This document shows, one piece after another, positions 24,496-28,841 of a DNA stretch of 64,000 bases (positions are counted from its first letter, which is position 1; each line of letters opens with the position of its first letter). The stretch is from a bacterium. Lineage in GTDB: Bacteria; Elusimicrobiota; Elusimicrobia; UBA1565; UBA9628. Position numbers and translations under genes: made by a program. The notes below the pieces were generated by a model, which did no database searches, was not told where the DNA came from, and worked only from the letters and a program-made list of their open reading frames with translations. Where the stretch lies: positions 75-64,074 of the forward strand of contig JAJXVH010000010.1 in the NCBI GenBank assembly GCA_021782205.1, written 5' to 3'.

Positions 24496-24562
24496 AAATG
24501 TCCAATGTTATTATGTAAATAACATAAATACACTGGACACATTTAAGGTGGCGACGTATAAT
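24496..24562 (+). promoter_or_regulatory. promoter (TGGACA-17-TATAAT) with an overlapping nested palindrome; candidate operator of the CarH/LitR-like regulator
   Basis: The only A/T-rich island in this region. -35 TGGACA at 24534-24539, 17-nt spacer, TATAAT at 24557-24562, GTG 6 nt later. Inner inverted repeat ATGTTATT(24505-12)/AATAACAT(24518-25). Outer repeat AAATGTCCA(24496-504)/TGGACAcATTT(24534-44), which overlaps the -35. Confidence 0.55.
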
Positions 24563-24568
24563 TCACGT

Positions 24569-25435
24569 GTGCTTCATGATTTGAAGGAAGTGTCGGGTTA
24601 CCTGGGCGTGCCCGCCGACACGCTGCGCAAATGGGAGTCGCGCCACGCGGTGGTGGCGCCGCGCCGCAGGCGCAACGGCTACCGCTCTTATGACGACGCG
24701 GACCTGGAGCGTCTGCGCCGTTTCGCCGCGCTGCGCCGGCAAGGCCTGAGCGCGGGTGCCGCGGCCCGCTCGGCACGGCGCGCATCGCTTCGCGCGGACC
24801 CTTGGATCGGCCGCATTAAAAATGAGACCGTCGCGGCGATCGGCGCGTTGGACCGGCGTCGCCTGGGACGGGTCTTCGACGCCAGTCTGCGCCGCCAGGG
24901 CTTGGAGCGCGCCGTCTCCCAGGTTTGGCTTCCGACGCTGGCGGTGGTCGGCGCGCGCGCCCACGCGCGCGGCGGCTTCTGGATCGCCGCCGAGCATTTC
25001 GCCTCCGCTTTTCTGCGCGAGCGCCTGCTCGGCGCGGCCCAAGAGGCGCGCGCCGACGGCCCGCCGGCGCTGGTGCTGGCCGCACCCGCCGGCGACCGGC
25101 ATGAGTTGGGCATGTTGGCCGCGCTGTGTCGATTGGAATCTCTCGGCGTGGGCTGCCTGTATCTGGGCGCCGACCTGCCGCAGGAGAGCCTGACGGCGGC
25201 GTTGGCGCGCGTGAAGGCGCGGGGCCTAGCGCTGACGTTGACGGCGGACTTGGCGCGCCGCGAGCTGCGCGCCGTTCTTGCCGATCTGCGGCGGCGCTTC
25301 CCGCGCCTGCGCTTATATGTGTGCGGTCAGGCCAGCCCGCGACATGCGAATCTGATCCGGGACATGGGCGCGGCCTTTTTGGGCACGGATCTTCCCGGCG
25401 GCACGGCGCGCATCGCCGCGGAGCTGGCACCATGA
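24569..25435 (+). CDS. MerR-family transcriptional regulator with a C-terminal cobalamin-binding domain (CarH/LitR-like)
   Basis: N-terminal MerR HTH (LKEVSGYLGVPADTLRKWESRH...YRSYDDADLERL). C-terminal B12-binding domain with DxHxxG (GDRHELG) in LVLAAPAGDRHELGMLAAL. Start is GTG 24569 if the TATAAT is real; the alternative GTG 24548 or the track start 24467 would place the promoter inside the ORF. Confidence 0.8.
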   Translation: MLHDLKEVSGYLGVPADTLRKWESRHAVVAPRRRRNGYRSYDDADLERLRRFAALRRQGLSAGAAARSARRASLRADPWIGRIKNETVAAIGALDRRRLGRVFDASLRRQGLERAVSQVWLPTLAVVGARAHARGGFWIAAEHFASAFLRERLLGAAQEARADGPPALVLAAPAGDRHELGMLAALCRLESLGVGCLYLGADLPQESLTAALARVKARGLALTLTADLARRELRAVLADLRRRFPRLRLYVCGQASPRHANLIRDMGAAFLGTDLPGGTARIAAELAP

Positions 25436-26880
25436 GGACCTCGCTAGTCTGGCTGCGCGCGGACCTGCGTCTGCAGGACAATCCCGCGCTTCAGGAGGCC
25501 GCCCGCGCGGGGGCCGTGCTCCCGGTCTACGTTTGGTCGCCGCAGGAGGAAGGGGCGTGGCCTGAGGGCGCGGCTTCGCGCTGGTGGCTTCATGGAAGCT
25601 TGGAGTCCTTGGGGGCGGCGTTCGCGGCGCGCGGCGTGCGGCTGGTGCTGGCCGCGGGACCGGCGGCACGCGTTTTGGTCGAATCGGCGCGCGCGGCCGG
25701 GGCTCGGGCTGTGTATTTTTCACGCCGCGTCGAACCGGCGGCGGCGGCGCAGGAGCGGGAGGTCGCGCAAGCCCTGGCGGCCGCCGGCATCGAGGCGCGC
25801 GCCTTCCCGGCGAATCTTCTCTACGATCCGGACGCCGTGCGCGGGCGCGAGGGCAAGCCCTACCGCGTGTTCACGCCGTTTTGGTCGCGCTGCGCGGAAC
25901 TGCCGTCCCCGCCGCCGCCGTGCGGCGATCCCGGCGACCTGCGCGCGCCGGCGCGGGCGCCGCGCGGCCTGGCGCTGGCCGCGCTGGGTTTGAAGCCGAC
26001 GATCGGCTGGGACGCGGGTCTGGGAGAAAGCTTCGCGCCGGGAGAGGCGGGGGCGAGGCGGGAGCTGCGGAGATTTCTCGACGACGGCCTGACGGACTAC
26101 CGCACGGCGCGCGATCTGCCCGCGCGCGCCGGTACGTCGCGCCTCTCCGCGCGCCTGCACTTCGGCGAATTGAGCGTGGGCCGGGTCTGGAAGGAGGCGA
26201 GTCGGCGCGCGCCTGCGGCGAACATGAAAGGGGGATTTTTAAGCGAACTGGGCTGGCGGGAGTTCGCGCACCACGTTCTCCATCACCAGCCGCAAACGCC
26301 GGAGGAGCCGCTCGACGCGCGCTTTTCCAGATTCGACTGGCGGCGCGACGACGCCGGGCTGAAGGTCTGGCGCCGCGGCAAGACCGGCTATCCCATCGTG
26401 GACGCGGGCATGCGCGAATTGTGGCGTACCGGCTGGATGCACAACCGCGCGCGGATGATCGTCGCCTCGTTTCTGTGCAAGGACCTGCTGATCGATTGGC
26501 GCGAGGGCGCGCGCTGGTTCTGGGACACCCTGGTGGACGCCGATCTGGCGGCCAACACCTTGGGCTGGCAGTGGACGGCGGGCTGCGGCGCGGACGCGGC
26601 ACCTTTCTTCCGAGTCTTCAACCCGATTCAGCAGGGCGTGCGTTGGGACGAGGACGGCGCGTACGTCAAGCGCTGGGTGCCGGAGCTTTCGCGCCTGCCT
26701 GCGCGCTGGATTCACGAGCCGTGGTCCGCGCCGCTCGAGGTGCTGCGCGAAGCCGGCGTGGAACTGGGCAAGAACTACCCGCGTCCCGTCGTCGAGCATG
26801 CGCAGGCGCGTCTGCGCGCGCTGGCGGCCTTCGCGCGCCGCGACCCGCGCGCCGCCGCCGGGGCGGGGGGCGCGCCGTGA
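25432..26880 (+). CDS. phrB: deoxyribodipyrimidine photolyase (CPD photolyase/cryptochrome family)
   Basis: Start moved to MRTSLVWLRADLRLQDNPAL (ATG 25432, ATGA overlap with the regulator). FAD-binding TGYPIVDAGMRELWRTGWMHNRARMIVASFL and WQWTAGCGADAAPFFRVFNP. Confidence 0.9.
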   Translation: MRTSLVWLRADLRLQDNPALQEAARAGAVLPVYVWSPQEEGAWPEGAASRWWLHGSLESLGAAFAARGVRLVLAAGPAARVLVESARAAGARAVYFSRRVEPAAAAQEREVAQALAAAGIEARAFPANLLYDPDAVRGREGKPYRVFTPFWSRCAELPSPPPPCGDPGDLRAPARAPRGLALAALGLKPTIGWDAGLGESFAPGEAGARRELRRFLDDGLTDYRTARDLPARAGTSRLSARLHFGELSVGRVWKEASRRAPAANMKGGFLSELGWREFAHHVLHHQPQTPEEPLDARFSRFDWRRDDAGLKVWRRGKTGYPIVDAGMRELWRTGWMHNRARMIVASFLCKDLLIDWREGARWFWDTLVDADLAANTLGWQWTAGCGADAAPFFRVFNPIQQGVRWDEDGAYVKRWVPELSRLPARWIHEPWSAPLEVLREAGVELGKNYPRPVVEHAQARLRALAAFARRDPRAAAGAGGAP

Positions 26881-27812
26881 CGCCGGCGTCCGCGGCGACG
26901 GCGGCGGTTGGAAAACTTCGCTTCGGCTTCGCCTGCATCCCGCTGGGCCTGCCCCAGCCCGTCGTGCGTACCTGCCGCCTTGAAAACGCGACGCCTTCGC
27001 GTCTGCGCGAACTCATTGAGGCGAACCTTGCGGCGCTGGATGCCTGCTTGGACTACGTCGCGCGCTTGAATCTGGAGCTTTTCCGGATCAACTCGGGCGT
27101 CATCCCTTTCGCGTCTCATCCGGTCAACGGCTTACCGTGGACCCGGCTCTATGCCGCGCCGCTGGCCGCGCTGGGGCGCAAGGCGCGGCGGCTGGGACTG
27201 CGGCTGTCCATGCATCCGGGACAGTTCACGGTGCTTAATTCTCCGTCTCCCGACGTCGTCGCGGCGTCGGTCGCGGAGTTGAAGTATCACGCCGATTTTC
27301 TGGACGCGCTCGGCATGGCGCAGGACAGCAAGGTCGTCATTCATTTGGGCGGCGTCTACGGCGACAAGCCCGCCGCGCTGCGGCGCCTGGACGGGGCCTG
27401 GGCGCGCCTGCCGCGAGACGTGCGGCGCAGGCTCGTCTTGGAAAACGACGAACGTCTGTATTCGGCGCAGGAGGCGCTTGACGCCGCCGAGCGCCTGGAC
27501 GCGCCGATGGTCTTCGACCGCTTCCATCACCGCGTCTACGGCGGACCTTCCGGCGCGCCGGTCGCCGCGCTGTTGAGGCGCGCGGTGAAAACCTGGCGGC
27601 GTCGCGACGGGAGGCCGAAGGTGCATTTTTCGTCGCAGGCCGCCGGAGAGAAGGCGGGAACGCACGGCGAGACGATCGTGAAAGGTGAATTCGAGGAATT
27701 TCTGGAGGAATCGCGCGGCATCGACCTGGACGTGATGGTCGAGGCGCGCGCCAAGGAGGCGGCCGCCTTGGAGGCGCGCGACTGGGCGCGGCAGGCCGGG
27801 AGGACGAAATGA
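26877..27812 (+). CDS. uvsE: UV damage endonuclease
   Basis: Only the last 311 codons of the 742-aa track ORF are real. GTG 26877 overlaps the phr stop (GTGA). UvdE motifs are FRINSGVIPFASHP, LSMHPGQFTVLNSP and VVIHLGG. Confidence 0.85.
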   Translation: MTPASAATAAVGKLRFGFACIPLGLPQPVVRTCRLENATPSRLRELIEANLAALDACLDYVARLNLELFRINSGVIPFASHPVNGLPWTRLYAAPLAALGRKARRLGLRLSMHPGQFTVLNSPSPDVVAASVAELKYHADFLDALGMAQDSKVVIHLGGVYGDKPAALRRLDGAWARLPRDVRRRLVLENDERLYSAQEALDAAERLDAPMVFDRFHHRVYGGPSGAPVAALLRRAVKTWRRRDGRPKVHFSSQAAGEKAGTHGETIVKGEFEEFLEESRGIDLDVMVEARAKEAAALEARDWARQAGRTK

Positions 27813-28258
27813 GCGTGAAAATATTCCTGCGTGAACAGCTTCTGCCTCGGCCGCGGGCCGAGGTCTTCCGCTTCTTCGAGACGCCCGAGAATCTGGCGCG
27901 CTTGACCCCGCCGCGCCTGGGCTTCGAGGTCCTGACGCCGTCGCCCATCCGCATGCGGGAAGGCGCGTTGATCGACTACCGCGTGCGGCCGCTGGGATTT
28001 CCCCAGCGCTGGACGACCTACATCGAGTCCTACGATCCTCCGCGGCGCTTCAGCGACGTGCAGTTGCGCGGACCCTACGCCTACTGGCACCACACGCACA
28101 CGTTCGAGGAGGCCCTCGGCGGCACGAAAATGACCGACGAGGTGCGCTATATTCTGCCCTACGGACCCTTCGGCGCGCTGGCGGCGCCGCTGATCGCGGC
28201 GGAGTTGGCGCGCATCTTCGCCTTTCGGGCGAAGACCGTCGCGGCGCTTCTGCGCTGA
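27809..28258 (+). CDS. SRPBCC (START/cyclase-dehydrase-like) family protein
   Basis: 149 aa. VFRFFETPENLARLTPP...YAYWHHTHTFE is typical of the COG4276-type SRPBCC group. ATGA overlap with uvsE. Confidence 0.75.
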   Translation: MSVKIFLREQLLPRPRAEVFRFFETPENLARLTPPRLGFEVLTPSPIRMREGALIDYRVRPLGFPQRWTTYIESYDPPRRFSDVQLRGPYAYWHHTHTFEEALGGTKMTDEVRYILPYGPFGALAAPLIAAELARIFAFRAKTVAALLR

Positions 28259-28280
28259 AGTAGGGTATAATGTCGGCCGT

Positions 28281-28352
28281 GCCGGGGTAGCTCAACGGTA
28301 GAGCAATCGCTTCGTAAGCGATAGGTTGTGGGTTCGAATCCCATCCCCGGCT
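28281..28352 (+). tRNA. tRNA-Thr (anticodon CGU)
   Basis: Hand-folded cloverleaf: acceptor GCCGGGG/CCCCGGC, D arm GCTC-AACGGTA-GAGC, anticodon arm ATCGC-TTCGTAA-GCGAT, variable loop AGGTT, T arm GTGGG-TTCGAAT-CCCAT, discriminator T. 72 nt, no encoded CCA. TATAAT at 28266-28271 lies 9 nt upstream. Confidence 0.9.
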
Positions 28353-28455
28353 TTCTATTTCTAGCAGGCTGCTGAAAAACCACTGGCGCGCTGAAAATGG
28401 TGACTTCCGCGTCAGTCGATTTTTTTAGTCGGGATTCGTCCCGCTCTATTTTCGG

Positions 28456-28695
28456 CTAAACGGCGGCCTGGCGGGTTGCGATCCGCTTGAGGTTGAGCAC
28501 CCAGCCGATCATGAATGCTTCCTGACGAACGTTTTTGAGCTGTCGCCGAGCAAAGCGTCGCAATCCGTGCAGTTCTTTGCCCTCGCCCCAAAGTTCCTCG
28601 ATCTTCTTTCGGGCACGCTGACTCAGCGTGCCAGCCGATGCTCGTATTTTCCTTCGAACCTCGACGGTGAGTTCCGTCCCGGCAACAGCGGTCAC
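28456..28695 (-). pseudogene. C-terminal remnant of an IS5/IS1182-type DDE transposase
   Basis: 79-aa ORF. SQRARKKIEELWGEGKELHGLRRFARRQLKNVRQEAFMIGWVLNLKRI matches the conserved C-terminal block of these transposases (R..IE..FG..K...GLRRF..RGL..V..E......NLKRL). No DDE core and no inverted repeats are present. Confidence 0.5.
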
Positions 28696-28841
28696 GCCAG
28701 CCTCTCAGTCGTGCTGCGCGCAGACCACTCCAGCTTCTGCGCTGGTTCGGCTCTCACTGATATCCGCGCGCGGCGGGGCCCCGGCCGTTTTCCGCCTTGA
28801 ATGTCGTATCATTATCGACCGTGAAGGATGCCTCGGCGACG

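Follow-up and report, generated by a model that had tools for sequence, protein, structure and literature searches.

A divergent CarH/LitR-type regulator with an altered tryptophan motif at the head of a predicted photolyase, UvsE, and SRPBCC operon in an Elusimicrobia bacterium

Which signal is read by a MerR-type regulator that stands at the head of genes for a photolyase, a UV damage endonuclease, and an SRPBCC protein, and that carries no tryptophan at the canonical position of the CarH motif Wx9EH? This question is raised by positions 24,569 to 28,258 of a 64,000-nucleotide stretch of DNA (hereafter the window; forward-strand positions 75 to 64,074 of contig JAJXVH010000010.1, assembly GCA_021782205.1). 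The source is an uncultured Elusimicrobia bacterium, and the window's own sequence was recovered in DNA runs of mine drainage and tailings metagenomes. We found that the regulator belongs to a divergent subfamily of the CarH/LitR family and is not a CarH orthologue. In addition, we think it probable that the regulator is an adenosylcobalamin (AdoCbl)-dependent, light-inactivated, and autoregulated repressor of the CarH/class I LitR kind, for which we infer B12 binding, oligomerization, repression, and the response to light.

The G+C content of the window is about 70% and drops to 37% at 24500-24599. From this A/T-rich dip onward, four genes follow each other on the + strand with no gaps between them. 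An earlier note on this DNA had described the four genes as chained by short overlaps, and all of these overlaps are found in the sequence (ATGA at 25432-25435, GTGA at 26877-26880, and ATGA at 27809-27812). Furthermore, every downstream start codon of the operon is preceded by a purine-rich stretch resembling a Shine-Dalgarno sequence (for instance, GGGAGGA at 27798-27804). The elements of the locus are as follows, the evidence being given in brackets.

24499-24539, strand not applicable: predicted operator, an imperfect palindrome of 41 bp, TGTCCA-N29-TGGACA, whose core is A/T-rich (inverted repeats and conservation)
24534-24562, + strand: sigma-70-type promoter TGGACA-17 nt-TATAAT (11 of 12 consensus matches)
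24569-25435, + strand: CarH/LitR-type regulator, 288 amino acids (Pfam, NCBIfam, and alignment with Thermus thermophilus CarH; AlphaFold2 model)
25432-26880, + strand: cyclobutane pyrimidine dimer (CPD) photolyase, 482 amino acids (Pfam, NCBIfam, and PDB matches)
26877-27812, + strand: UV damage endonuclease UvsE/UVDE, 311 amino acids (TIGR00629 and PDB 2j6v)
27809-28258, + strand: SRPBCC (helix-grip) protein, 149 amino acids (Pfam, PDB 3oh8, AlphaFold2, and Foldseek)

The regulator and its putative B12 pocket

The earlier note had given the regulator the architecture of CarH/LitR light sensors, and this was borne out by both homology and fold. In a phmmer search, residues 4-271 of the regulator matched the full-length CarH/LitR of T. 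thermophilus (TtCarH; PDB 3whp and 5c8d; E ~1e-24). The match to TtCarH extends over the whole length (E = 8e-25), with an identity of about 29-30%. In addition, the NCBIfam model of CarH (NF052513) was matched with E = 5.8e-28 over profile positions 10-264 of 274, and the Pfam model MerR_1 with 54.9 bits. The AlphaFold2 model, built from 48 aligned sequences, had a mean predicted local distance difference test score (pLDDT) of 94.9 and a predicted template modelling score (pTM) of 0.84. When this model was compared with the PDB using Foldseek, all of the top 50 matches were TtCarH entries. The cobalamin-binding domain was superposed on that of TtCarH with template modelling (TM) scores of 0.83-0.85 and root-mean-square deviations of 2.4-3.0 Å, the best superposition being that on 8c33 (TM 0.85, 2.4 Å). 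A C-terminal domain outside the B12-binding families, which the note had named as a finding that would overturn its view, was looked for in the alignment and the fold and does not occur.

The protein consists of a MerR winged helix, a four-helix bundle, and a Rossmann B12 domain. The winged helix carries a recognition helix of the RxWERRY type, which reads R-K-W-E-S-R-H in the window; in the clade of relatives described below, RxWExR(Y/H) is invariant and R20, W22, E23, and R25 are fixed. The bundle contains the residues A131-H132...W138-I-A-A-E142-H143. Because the domain layout, recognition helix, and His motif match those of the CarH/LitR family, and because an intact Wx9EH motif and a score above the NCBIfam equivalog threshold are lacking, we file the regulator in a divergent subfamily. 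Class II LitR was also considered as an identity and was rejected, for the Rossmann domain with His178 is present and there is no LOV gene in the neighbourhoods.

The next question is whether the residues that hold the cofactor in TtCarH are kept. The motif GDRHELG pointed out in the earlier note is present, and its GDRH178ELG aligns with GERH177EIG of TtCarH, which supplies the lower axial ligand. In the same alignment, E142-H143 of the regulator correspond to E141-H142 of TtCarH, and H132 corresponds to H132. The B12 motif of the window reads DRHELG-x41-TLT-x27-CG, and the consensus motif has SxT/V and GG where the window has TLT and CG (PMC9304148). The pattern D/ExHxxG-x41-SxT/V-x22-27-GG is recognizable in the regulator, the changes from S to T and from the first G to C being conservative. 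Across the clade, the motif is kept as DxHxxG-x41-(T/S)xT-x27-(C/A)G.

Meanwhile, the note had read by eye that the Trp of the AdoCbl-capping motif was replaced and that the EH pair was retained. This part stands, since Ala131 occupies the position of TtCarH Trp131; a Trp conserved in the clade, within GGFWIAAEH, had been overlooked. Relative to TtCarH, the regulator has a one-residue insertion after Ala131-His132, and the position of TtCarH Gly137 is Trp138 in the window. In the AlphaFold2 model, helix 3 extends to residue 134, and residue 137 is the first of helix 4. Trp138 therefore lies at i-4 from Glu142, one turn earlier and on the same helical face, and it is also near the end of helix 3, where Trp131 of TtCarH is located. 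In TtCarH, the adenosyl group is stacked by Trp131 and hydrogen-bonded by Glu141 (PMC10442372). On the basis of the model, we propose that Trp138 fills the adenosyl-capping role of Trp131 from another helix. Judging from the alignment, the Trp has been relocated from -10 to -4 relative to the EH pair and not simply lost, and a role in capping the adenosyl group may be kept.

To see how widely this arrangement occurs, 5.8 billion proteins were covered by a word-indexed search. Only 16 close relatives of the regulator were found (44-100% identity), and all of them have W-(I/V)-(A/S)-x-E-H. Beyond these 16, the identity falls to 33% or less, and the proteins have the canonical Wx9EH and a match to PF02607. 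In addition, when 1.84 billion representatives were searched exhaustively with a profile, about 13 clusters scored 194-430 bits, and canonical CarH sequences formed a plateau below them, near 160 bits. In a motif census, Wx9EH was present in 134 of 169 sequences, none of them in the clade, which has W-x3-EH. Position -4 is S, T, or G in most of the canonical sequences tallied (72/107). Trp was found at this position in 24 sequences, and the residue aligned to the canonical Trp is Ala in 21 of them.

The maximum-likelihood tree placed all Trp-at-minus-4 sequences in one group of 27, with a value of 100 in the SH-like approximate likelihood ratio test (SH-aLRT) and a stem of 0.95 substitutions per site. 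This single monophyletic group argues that the move of the Trp was one event, combining a large-to-small with a small-to-large exchange, which was later kept. All 26 non-basal members of the clade have His178, Glu142, and His143, and 24 of them have Trp138; the equivalent of His132 is kept in 17 of 28 clade members. In P0031 and P0032, both basal in the clade, the lower-ligand His and the EH pair have been lost, and their sequences suggest that B12-free regulators arose here independently, as a parallel to CarA. The clade was found only in metagenomes and in metagenome-assembled genomes (MAGs) of Elusimicrobia. The named genomes are three Elusimicrobia MAGs (loci L001-L003), and a metagenome scan contributed just two further clade loci, one of which is probably the same sequence as L085.

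Predicted operator, promoter, and gene content

Is the regulator placed so that it could control its own operon? The promoter is the sole promoter-like site in the 5.2 kb between 24000 and 29200, where shuffled sequences give 0.4. The arms of the predicted operator are TGTCCA at 24499-24504 and TGGACA at 24534-24539, and the right arm is the -35 hexamer. Thus, any protein occupying the palindrome would overlie the -35 as well. With one mismatch allowed, the palindrome was matched once in the window, but a match also turned up in 14 of 100 shuffled sequences. Taken alone, the palindrome in the window would be weak evidence, and the real support is its in-register conservation across related loci.

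The pattern TGTCMA-N29-TKGACA occurs in every one of the ten clade loci whose 5' flank is visible (the window, L001, L003, L081, L083, L085, L086, L087, L089, and L091). It spans 41 bp, and 40 bp in L003. The regulators of the operator-bearing relatives are only 37-61% identical to that of the window. The consensus across the clade loci is TGTCAAGTGTTTTT-N13-AAAAACACTTGACA. Furthermore, the order of the elements is the same in all ten loci: the right arm as -35, a 17-bp spacer, a -10 of the form TAnAnT, and, 6-7 nt further on, the start codon. From this distance of 6-7 nt, the mRNA is predicted to be leaderless, with the transcript starting at or next to GTG 24569. The conserved register and the N-terminus of the family together place the start of the regulator at GTG 24569, which yields M-L-H-D-L-K (family N-terminus M-x-Y/H-x-L-K). 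In public gene calls, the product has 295 amino acids and begins with GTG 24548, a codon within the promoter that falls between its -35 and -10 elements.

The left arm has a second use in the relatives. In five of them (L001, L085, L086, L087, and L089), it is the -35 of a divergent, leaderless promoter of a CbiX-like gene. Since the window and L083 keep the left arm without a divergent gene, this arm should be an element of the operator and not merely of a promoter. In addition, the operator arms contain T-nn-ACA, which is the core of the 11-bp CarH site nAnnTnnACAn (PMC8156234).

The three genes behind the regulator were examined one by one. The photolyase matched FAD_binding_7 with 301 bits and DNA_photolyase with 161 bits. 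Its best PDB match was 4u63 (Agrobacterium PhrA; E = 6.7e-135), ahead of plant CRY1/CRY2 and Escherichia coli photolyase, which points to a CPD photolyase of the class III type, the class being read from the best match alone. UvsE matched UvdE with 200.5 bits and TIGR00629 with 190.8 bits (cut-off 124.45); it also matched T. thermophilus UVDE (2j6v) over residues 14-295 with E = 1.8e-58. The SRPBCC protein matched Polyketide_cyc with 30.7 bits, above the cut-off of 23.4, and the N-terminal domain of 3oh8 with E = 5e-6. Its AlphaFold2 model has a pLDDT of 91, and the Foldseek neighbours are Bet v 1-like proteins, TcmN ARO/CYC, and TTHA0849 (TM 0.6-0.72). A pocket ligand was sought through these structural neighbours; they were only generic helix-grip proteins, from which no ligand could be derived. 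The protein has an invariant polar motif, F-x-D-x-Q-x2-G-P-x3-W-x-H-x-H-x-F. By sequence, it is a free-standing counterpart of the N-terminal domain of SRPBCC-YfcH fusions, split off from the C-terminal reductase half.

Does this gene content belong to the regulator, or is it a feature of one genome? The earlier note had proposed one regulator-led unit with phr, uvsE, and the SRPBCC gene. Twelve loci were compared by gene calls and tblastn (the window, L001-L003, L081, L083, L085-L087, L089, L091, and L092); L092 and L085 probably represent a single sequence, and at least two of the 12 loci may be redundant. The genes were distributed as follows.

SRPBCC gene: 11 of 12 loci
TIGR01777/YfcH-type reductase gene: 11 of 12 loci (329 bits, cut-off 207)
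Photolyase gene: 9 of 12 loci
uvsE: 5 of 12 loci (the window, L081, L083, L089, and L091)
CbiX-like gene (about 166 amino acids): 6 of the 10 loci whose 5' flank is visible (five divergent copies; in L003, immediately behind the regulator)
Lipocalin gene: 3 of 12 loci

The proposal holds in that the coupled operon is conserved in the relatives; it does not hold for uvsE as a fixed part, which is optional. The constant cargo is the pair of the SRPBCC protein and the TIGR01777/YfcH-type oxidoreductase, and uvsE is accessory. The reductase is fused to the SRPBCC protein or directly follows it in ten loci, lies elsewhere in the locus in L003, and is absent only in the window. When the window was searched by tblastn for cbiX-like, lipocalin, and yfcH-like genes, none was found. 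Locus L083 is fully syntenic with the window, with the liv operon, the regulator, phr, uvsE, the SRPBCC gene, a yfcH-like gene, tRNA-Thr(CGU), and the Wzy_C-TPR gene. From this comparison of sequences, the reductase partner gene of the window appears to have been deleted from the region 28259-28796, and an IS1182 scar adjoins the place where the relatives carry the yfcH-like gene.

As a comparison set, we used 155 loci with canonical CarH homologues, for which the fetched flank was 7 kb in genome loci. A photolyase gene was in the fetched flank of one of them. uvsE was nearby in three and never adjoined the regulator on the same strand. An SRPBCC homologue followed the regulator directly in two (L065 and L079, Verrucomicrobiota). 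Among the loci compared, this clade is therefore the only one in which phr and uvsE appear to share a transcript with a CarH-type regulator gene; the SRPBCC link recurs elsewhere. The two SRPBCC homologues (L065:6324-6659 and L079:7960-8385, in Limisphaerales/Verrucomicrobiota MAGs) are 42-46% identical and follow CarH homologues with Wx9EH. The SRPBCC family may thus be a recurrent member of light regulons.

Two further observations concern the relatives. The CbiX-like protein of about 166 amino acids has the motifs CAYNEFCGPS and HSECEIP, matches PF01903 with 42.9 bits, and has a class II chelatase fold; its relation to solved chelatases is distant only. Its genes are located as follows.

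L086:1582-2082, - strand: CbiX-like gene
L087:3008-3508, - strand: CbiX-like gene
L085:5395-5901, - strand: CbiX-like gene
L089:5378-5878, - strand: CbiX-like gene
L001:6398-6901, - strand: CbiX-like gene
L003:7931-8428, + strand: CbiX-like gene

This protein could handle a corrinoid or tetrapyrrole for the photoreceptor. In addition, L089:1-5381, beside the clade locus, carries genes for two CMAS-type methyltransferases, DUF1365, DUF2878, an amine-oxidase-type flavoprotein, and a short-chain dehydrogenase/reductase (SDR). Genes of the same kinds are light-induced under class II LitR in Pseudomonas (PMC9758184).

In the window, the regulator gene is preceded by a liv-type ABC transporter operon of the same orientation. 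Downstream, the order is tRNA-Thr(CGU), the IS1182 remnant, and a Wzy_C-TPR gene.

28281-28352, + strand: tRNA-Thr (CGU) (ARAGORN)
28430-28453, + strand: terminator-like hairpin with a T-rich tail (consensus match only)
28459-28704, - strand: C-terminal remnant of an IS1182-family transposase (PF13751, E = 9e-8; NF033551 model positions 420-487 of 488)

The tRNA gene begins 22 nt past the last stop codon of the operon and may be co-transcribed with it. A perfect TATAAT at 28266-28271 lies just past the SRPBCC stop codon and 9 nt upstream of the tRNA gene, and a good -35 is absent. The tRNA gene may be transcribed from a promoter of its own or by read-through from the operon. The hairpin at 28430-28453 is the first terminator-like site past the operon and the tRNA gene, the number of such matches in the region being at the level of chance.

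How the regulator may act

In the reading that we favour, the AdoCbl-loaded regulator would oligomerize in the dark and bind the palindrome at 24499-24539. As the right arm of the palindrome is the -35, RNA polymerase would be excluded. UV, blue, or green light would then break the Co-C bond, so that the oligomer would fall apart and the operator would be freed. A leaderless polycistronic mRNA would now be made from GTG 24569, encoding the regulator itself (autoregulation), the class III-type CPD photolyase, the light-independent UvsE, and the SRPBCC protein. The downstream genes would be translated through the 4-nt overlaps, each with its own Shine-Dalgarno sequence. As a result, photoreactivation, UvsE-initiated excision repair, and the function of the SRPBCC protein would rise together. 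Meanwhile, the adenosyl pocket would have been rebuilt in the clade, with the Trp of helix 3 changed to Ala and a Trp at the first turn of helix 4 taking over the capping. We prefer this AdoCbl-dependent repressor because of the ligand residues, the CarH fold, the invariant recognition helix, the operator over the promoter, and the light-stress cargo. The cargo of the relatives (photolyase, lipocalin, SDR, and the CMAS/DUF1365/DUF2878/amine-oxidase set) is typical of light responses and comparable to the LitR regulon of Pseudomonas (PMC9758184).

Several findings weigh against this reading. The Trp of Wx9EH has been described as crucial for AdoCbl-specific binding and tetramer formation, and here its canonical position holds no Trp, so that the motif of CarH is not intact. 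The GG of the B12 motif is replaced by CG. In addition, the B12-binding model PF02310 gave 20.3 bits, under the Pfam gathering cut-off of 32.1, and a Pfam scan gave no match of the regulator to PF02607 (B12-binding_2). The score for NF052513 was 97.9 bits, below the equivalog cut-off of 400 that sets membership. Furthermore, the operator arms are inverted and 35 bp apart, unlike the tandem direct repeats of known CarH operators, and the DNA-bound assembly may differ from that of Thermus and Bacillus CarH.

Could the regulator bind a different corrinoid? It might hold one with another upper ligand (methyl-, hydroxo-, or another cobalamin), or use it for another purpose such as sensing B12 or redox status, with altered photochemistry or spectral sensitivity. 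We regard this as rather unlikely. The pocket has been remodelled by the Trp-to-Ala exchange, the one-residue insertion, and the change from Gly/Ser to Trp; nevertheless, all 26 non-basal members have the Glu-His pair, whose counterpart in TtCarH is in contact with the adenosyl group. The His132 equivalent, whose loss from the remaining clade members fits a changed ligand (it is kept in just 17 of 28), is the upper ligand of the light state in TtCarH, and AdoCbl is the only form that supports TtCarH tetramers (PMC10442372). Our analysis gave no evidence for another ligand. The CbiX-like gene, which stands on the shared operator in five relatives and downstream of the regulator in L003, hints at a special handling of corrinoids or tetrapyrroles; the photolyase and the other light-stress cargo argue for light as the input.

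It is unlikely, too, that the regulator is a B12-independent repressor like CarA. In that case, it would be a constitutive dimer or tetramer on the same operator until a different cue freed it (for example, an antirepressor, an oxidative signal, or a partner photoreceptor), and the B12-type residues would be structural relics. CarA of Myxococcus xanthus lacks the canonical Trp, as does the window's regulator, keeps EH and the His motif, and is nevertheless B12-independent (PMC9304148), and this parallel adds to the points against AdoCbl dependence, as do the sub-threshold scores of the domain models. A palindromic operator would suit symmetric dimers, and the loss of His and EH in P0031 and P0032 indicates that B12-free function is reachable in this lineage. 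However, the regulator has a one-residue insertion and the clade a newly fixed Trp, and the retention of His178, Glu142, and His143 in 26 of 26 non-basal members, despite the stem of 0.95 and long terminal branches, would be hard to explain without a ligand. Moreover, no antirepressor-like or LOV gene was seen among the 12 loci, and no small acidic SH3-like gene was noticed there, no profile search having been made for it.

A classical MerR-type activator that remodels the promoter upon ligand binding, as the N-terminal MerR winged-helix domain might suggest, is very unlikely and was rejected on promoter geometry, for the spacer has the optimal 17 bp in all loci (19-20 bp at MerR-activated promoters), the conserved repeat lies upstream of and over the -35 and not within the spacer, and the closest characterized relatives are repressors (PMC8156234).

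The clade might further be a distinct subclass of B12 photoreceptors. This subclass would combine a helix-4 capping Trp, a different DNA-bound assembly, a 41-bp inverted-repeat operator serving in relatives as the -35 of two divergent leaderless promoters, and, in most relatives, co-regulation of a CbiX-like protein for the photolysed corrinoid. We offer this combination tentatively, as a possibility about which there is more doubt than confidence. To our knowledge, no pathway is known for handling or recycling a photolysed corrinoid.

These results matter for several reasons. CarH, the founding member of the B12 photoreceptors, is in wide use as a module in optogenetics and material science, and its Trp131 is regarded as essential for AdoCbl-specific assembly. 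The clade is a natural experiment in which the Trp has moved and the other ligand residues are kept, and it tests the ways in which an adenosyl pocket can be built. Its variants may have different kinetics, ligand selectivity, or oligomer geometry. In addition, the conserved palindromic operator with its leaderless promoter is a directly testable prediction. The locus also suggests light sensing in some Elusimicrobia, a phylum with few cultured members, where light would govern photoreactivation and, in certain species, dark excision repair as well. Finally, it ties the uncharacterized SRPBCC-YfcH family to light stress.

Comparison with known systems

In a literature search, we found no description of the relocated Trp, of a relevant CarH in Elusimicrobia, or of uvsE under a LitR/CarH regulator; likewise, no link between LitR and a UV damage endonuclease and no work on DUF1731 together with SRPBCC was found. 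The locus can be compared with four systems that resemble it in part.

The first is TtCarH (PDB 5c8d, 5c8e, 5c8f, and 3whp). Both proteins have a MerR domain, a four-helix bundle, and a Rossmann B12 domain, and they share the lower-ligand His in (D/E)-R-H-E-(L/I)-G, the Glu-His pair, and the His beside the canonical Trp position. Also shared are R177 and D202, the Arg/Asp pair at the dimer interface, and Gly193. The operator extends over the -35, which is the arrangement at known CarH targets. However, Trp131 is Ala in the regulator of the window, an insertion follows His132, and Trp stands for Gly137. Furthermore, GG is CG, SxV is TxT, and the equivalent of Gly160 is not kept. The operators of Thermus and Bacillus CarH consist of three or four tandem direct repeats (PMC8156234); that of TtCarH has three 11-bp direct repeats in tandem, in contrast to the 41-bp inverted repeat of the window. 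The cargo of TtCarH is carotenoid genes, whereas that of the window is DNA repair and SRPBCC genes on an mRNA that is predicted to be leaderless and autoregulated.

The second is CarA of M. xanthus, in which the Trp of Wx9EH is likewise missing and both EH and the His motif for B12 are retained. CarA represses from a large operator whose palindromic elements overlap the -35, a layout that resembles the operator of the window; the CarA operator was reportedly found to be palindromic in work ascribed to Lopez-Rubio and co-workers (2004). In CarA, the Trp and four neighbouring residues have been deleted, whereas the clade has an insertion and a relocated, conserved Trp, so that the pattern of insertions and deletions is not that of CarA. 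In addition, CarA needs the antirepressor CarS, and no such gene was seen in the 12 loci. In the tree, the clade forms a separate long-stemmed branch among canonical CarH sequences.

The third system is the fusions of SRPBCC and YfcH (the 'SulA family' epimerase, TIGR01777; 3oh8 of Corynebacterium glutamicum), whose N-terminal SRPBCC domain matches the 149-amino-acid protein of the window. The reductase partner is fused or adjacent in the relatives and absent from the window locus.

The fourth is the class II/III LitR regulons of Pseudomonas and Burkholderia, in which a MerR-type LitR is encoded with phrB. The adjacency of LitR and photolyase, which the earlier note had taken as established, is indeed so in the literature, where LitR-photolyase operons have been described (PMC9758184, PMC11417400). 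Moreover, the light regulon of Pseudomonas includes SDR, lipocalin, CMAS, DUF1365, and amine-oxidase genes, which are also found in the clade relatives (PMC9758184). Class II LitR has a four-helix bundle only and acts via LOV proteins, and class III LitR has an unrelated C-terminus. In contrast, the regulator of the window has the full B12 Rossmann domain with its His.

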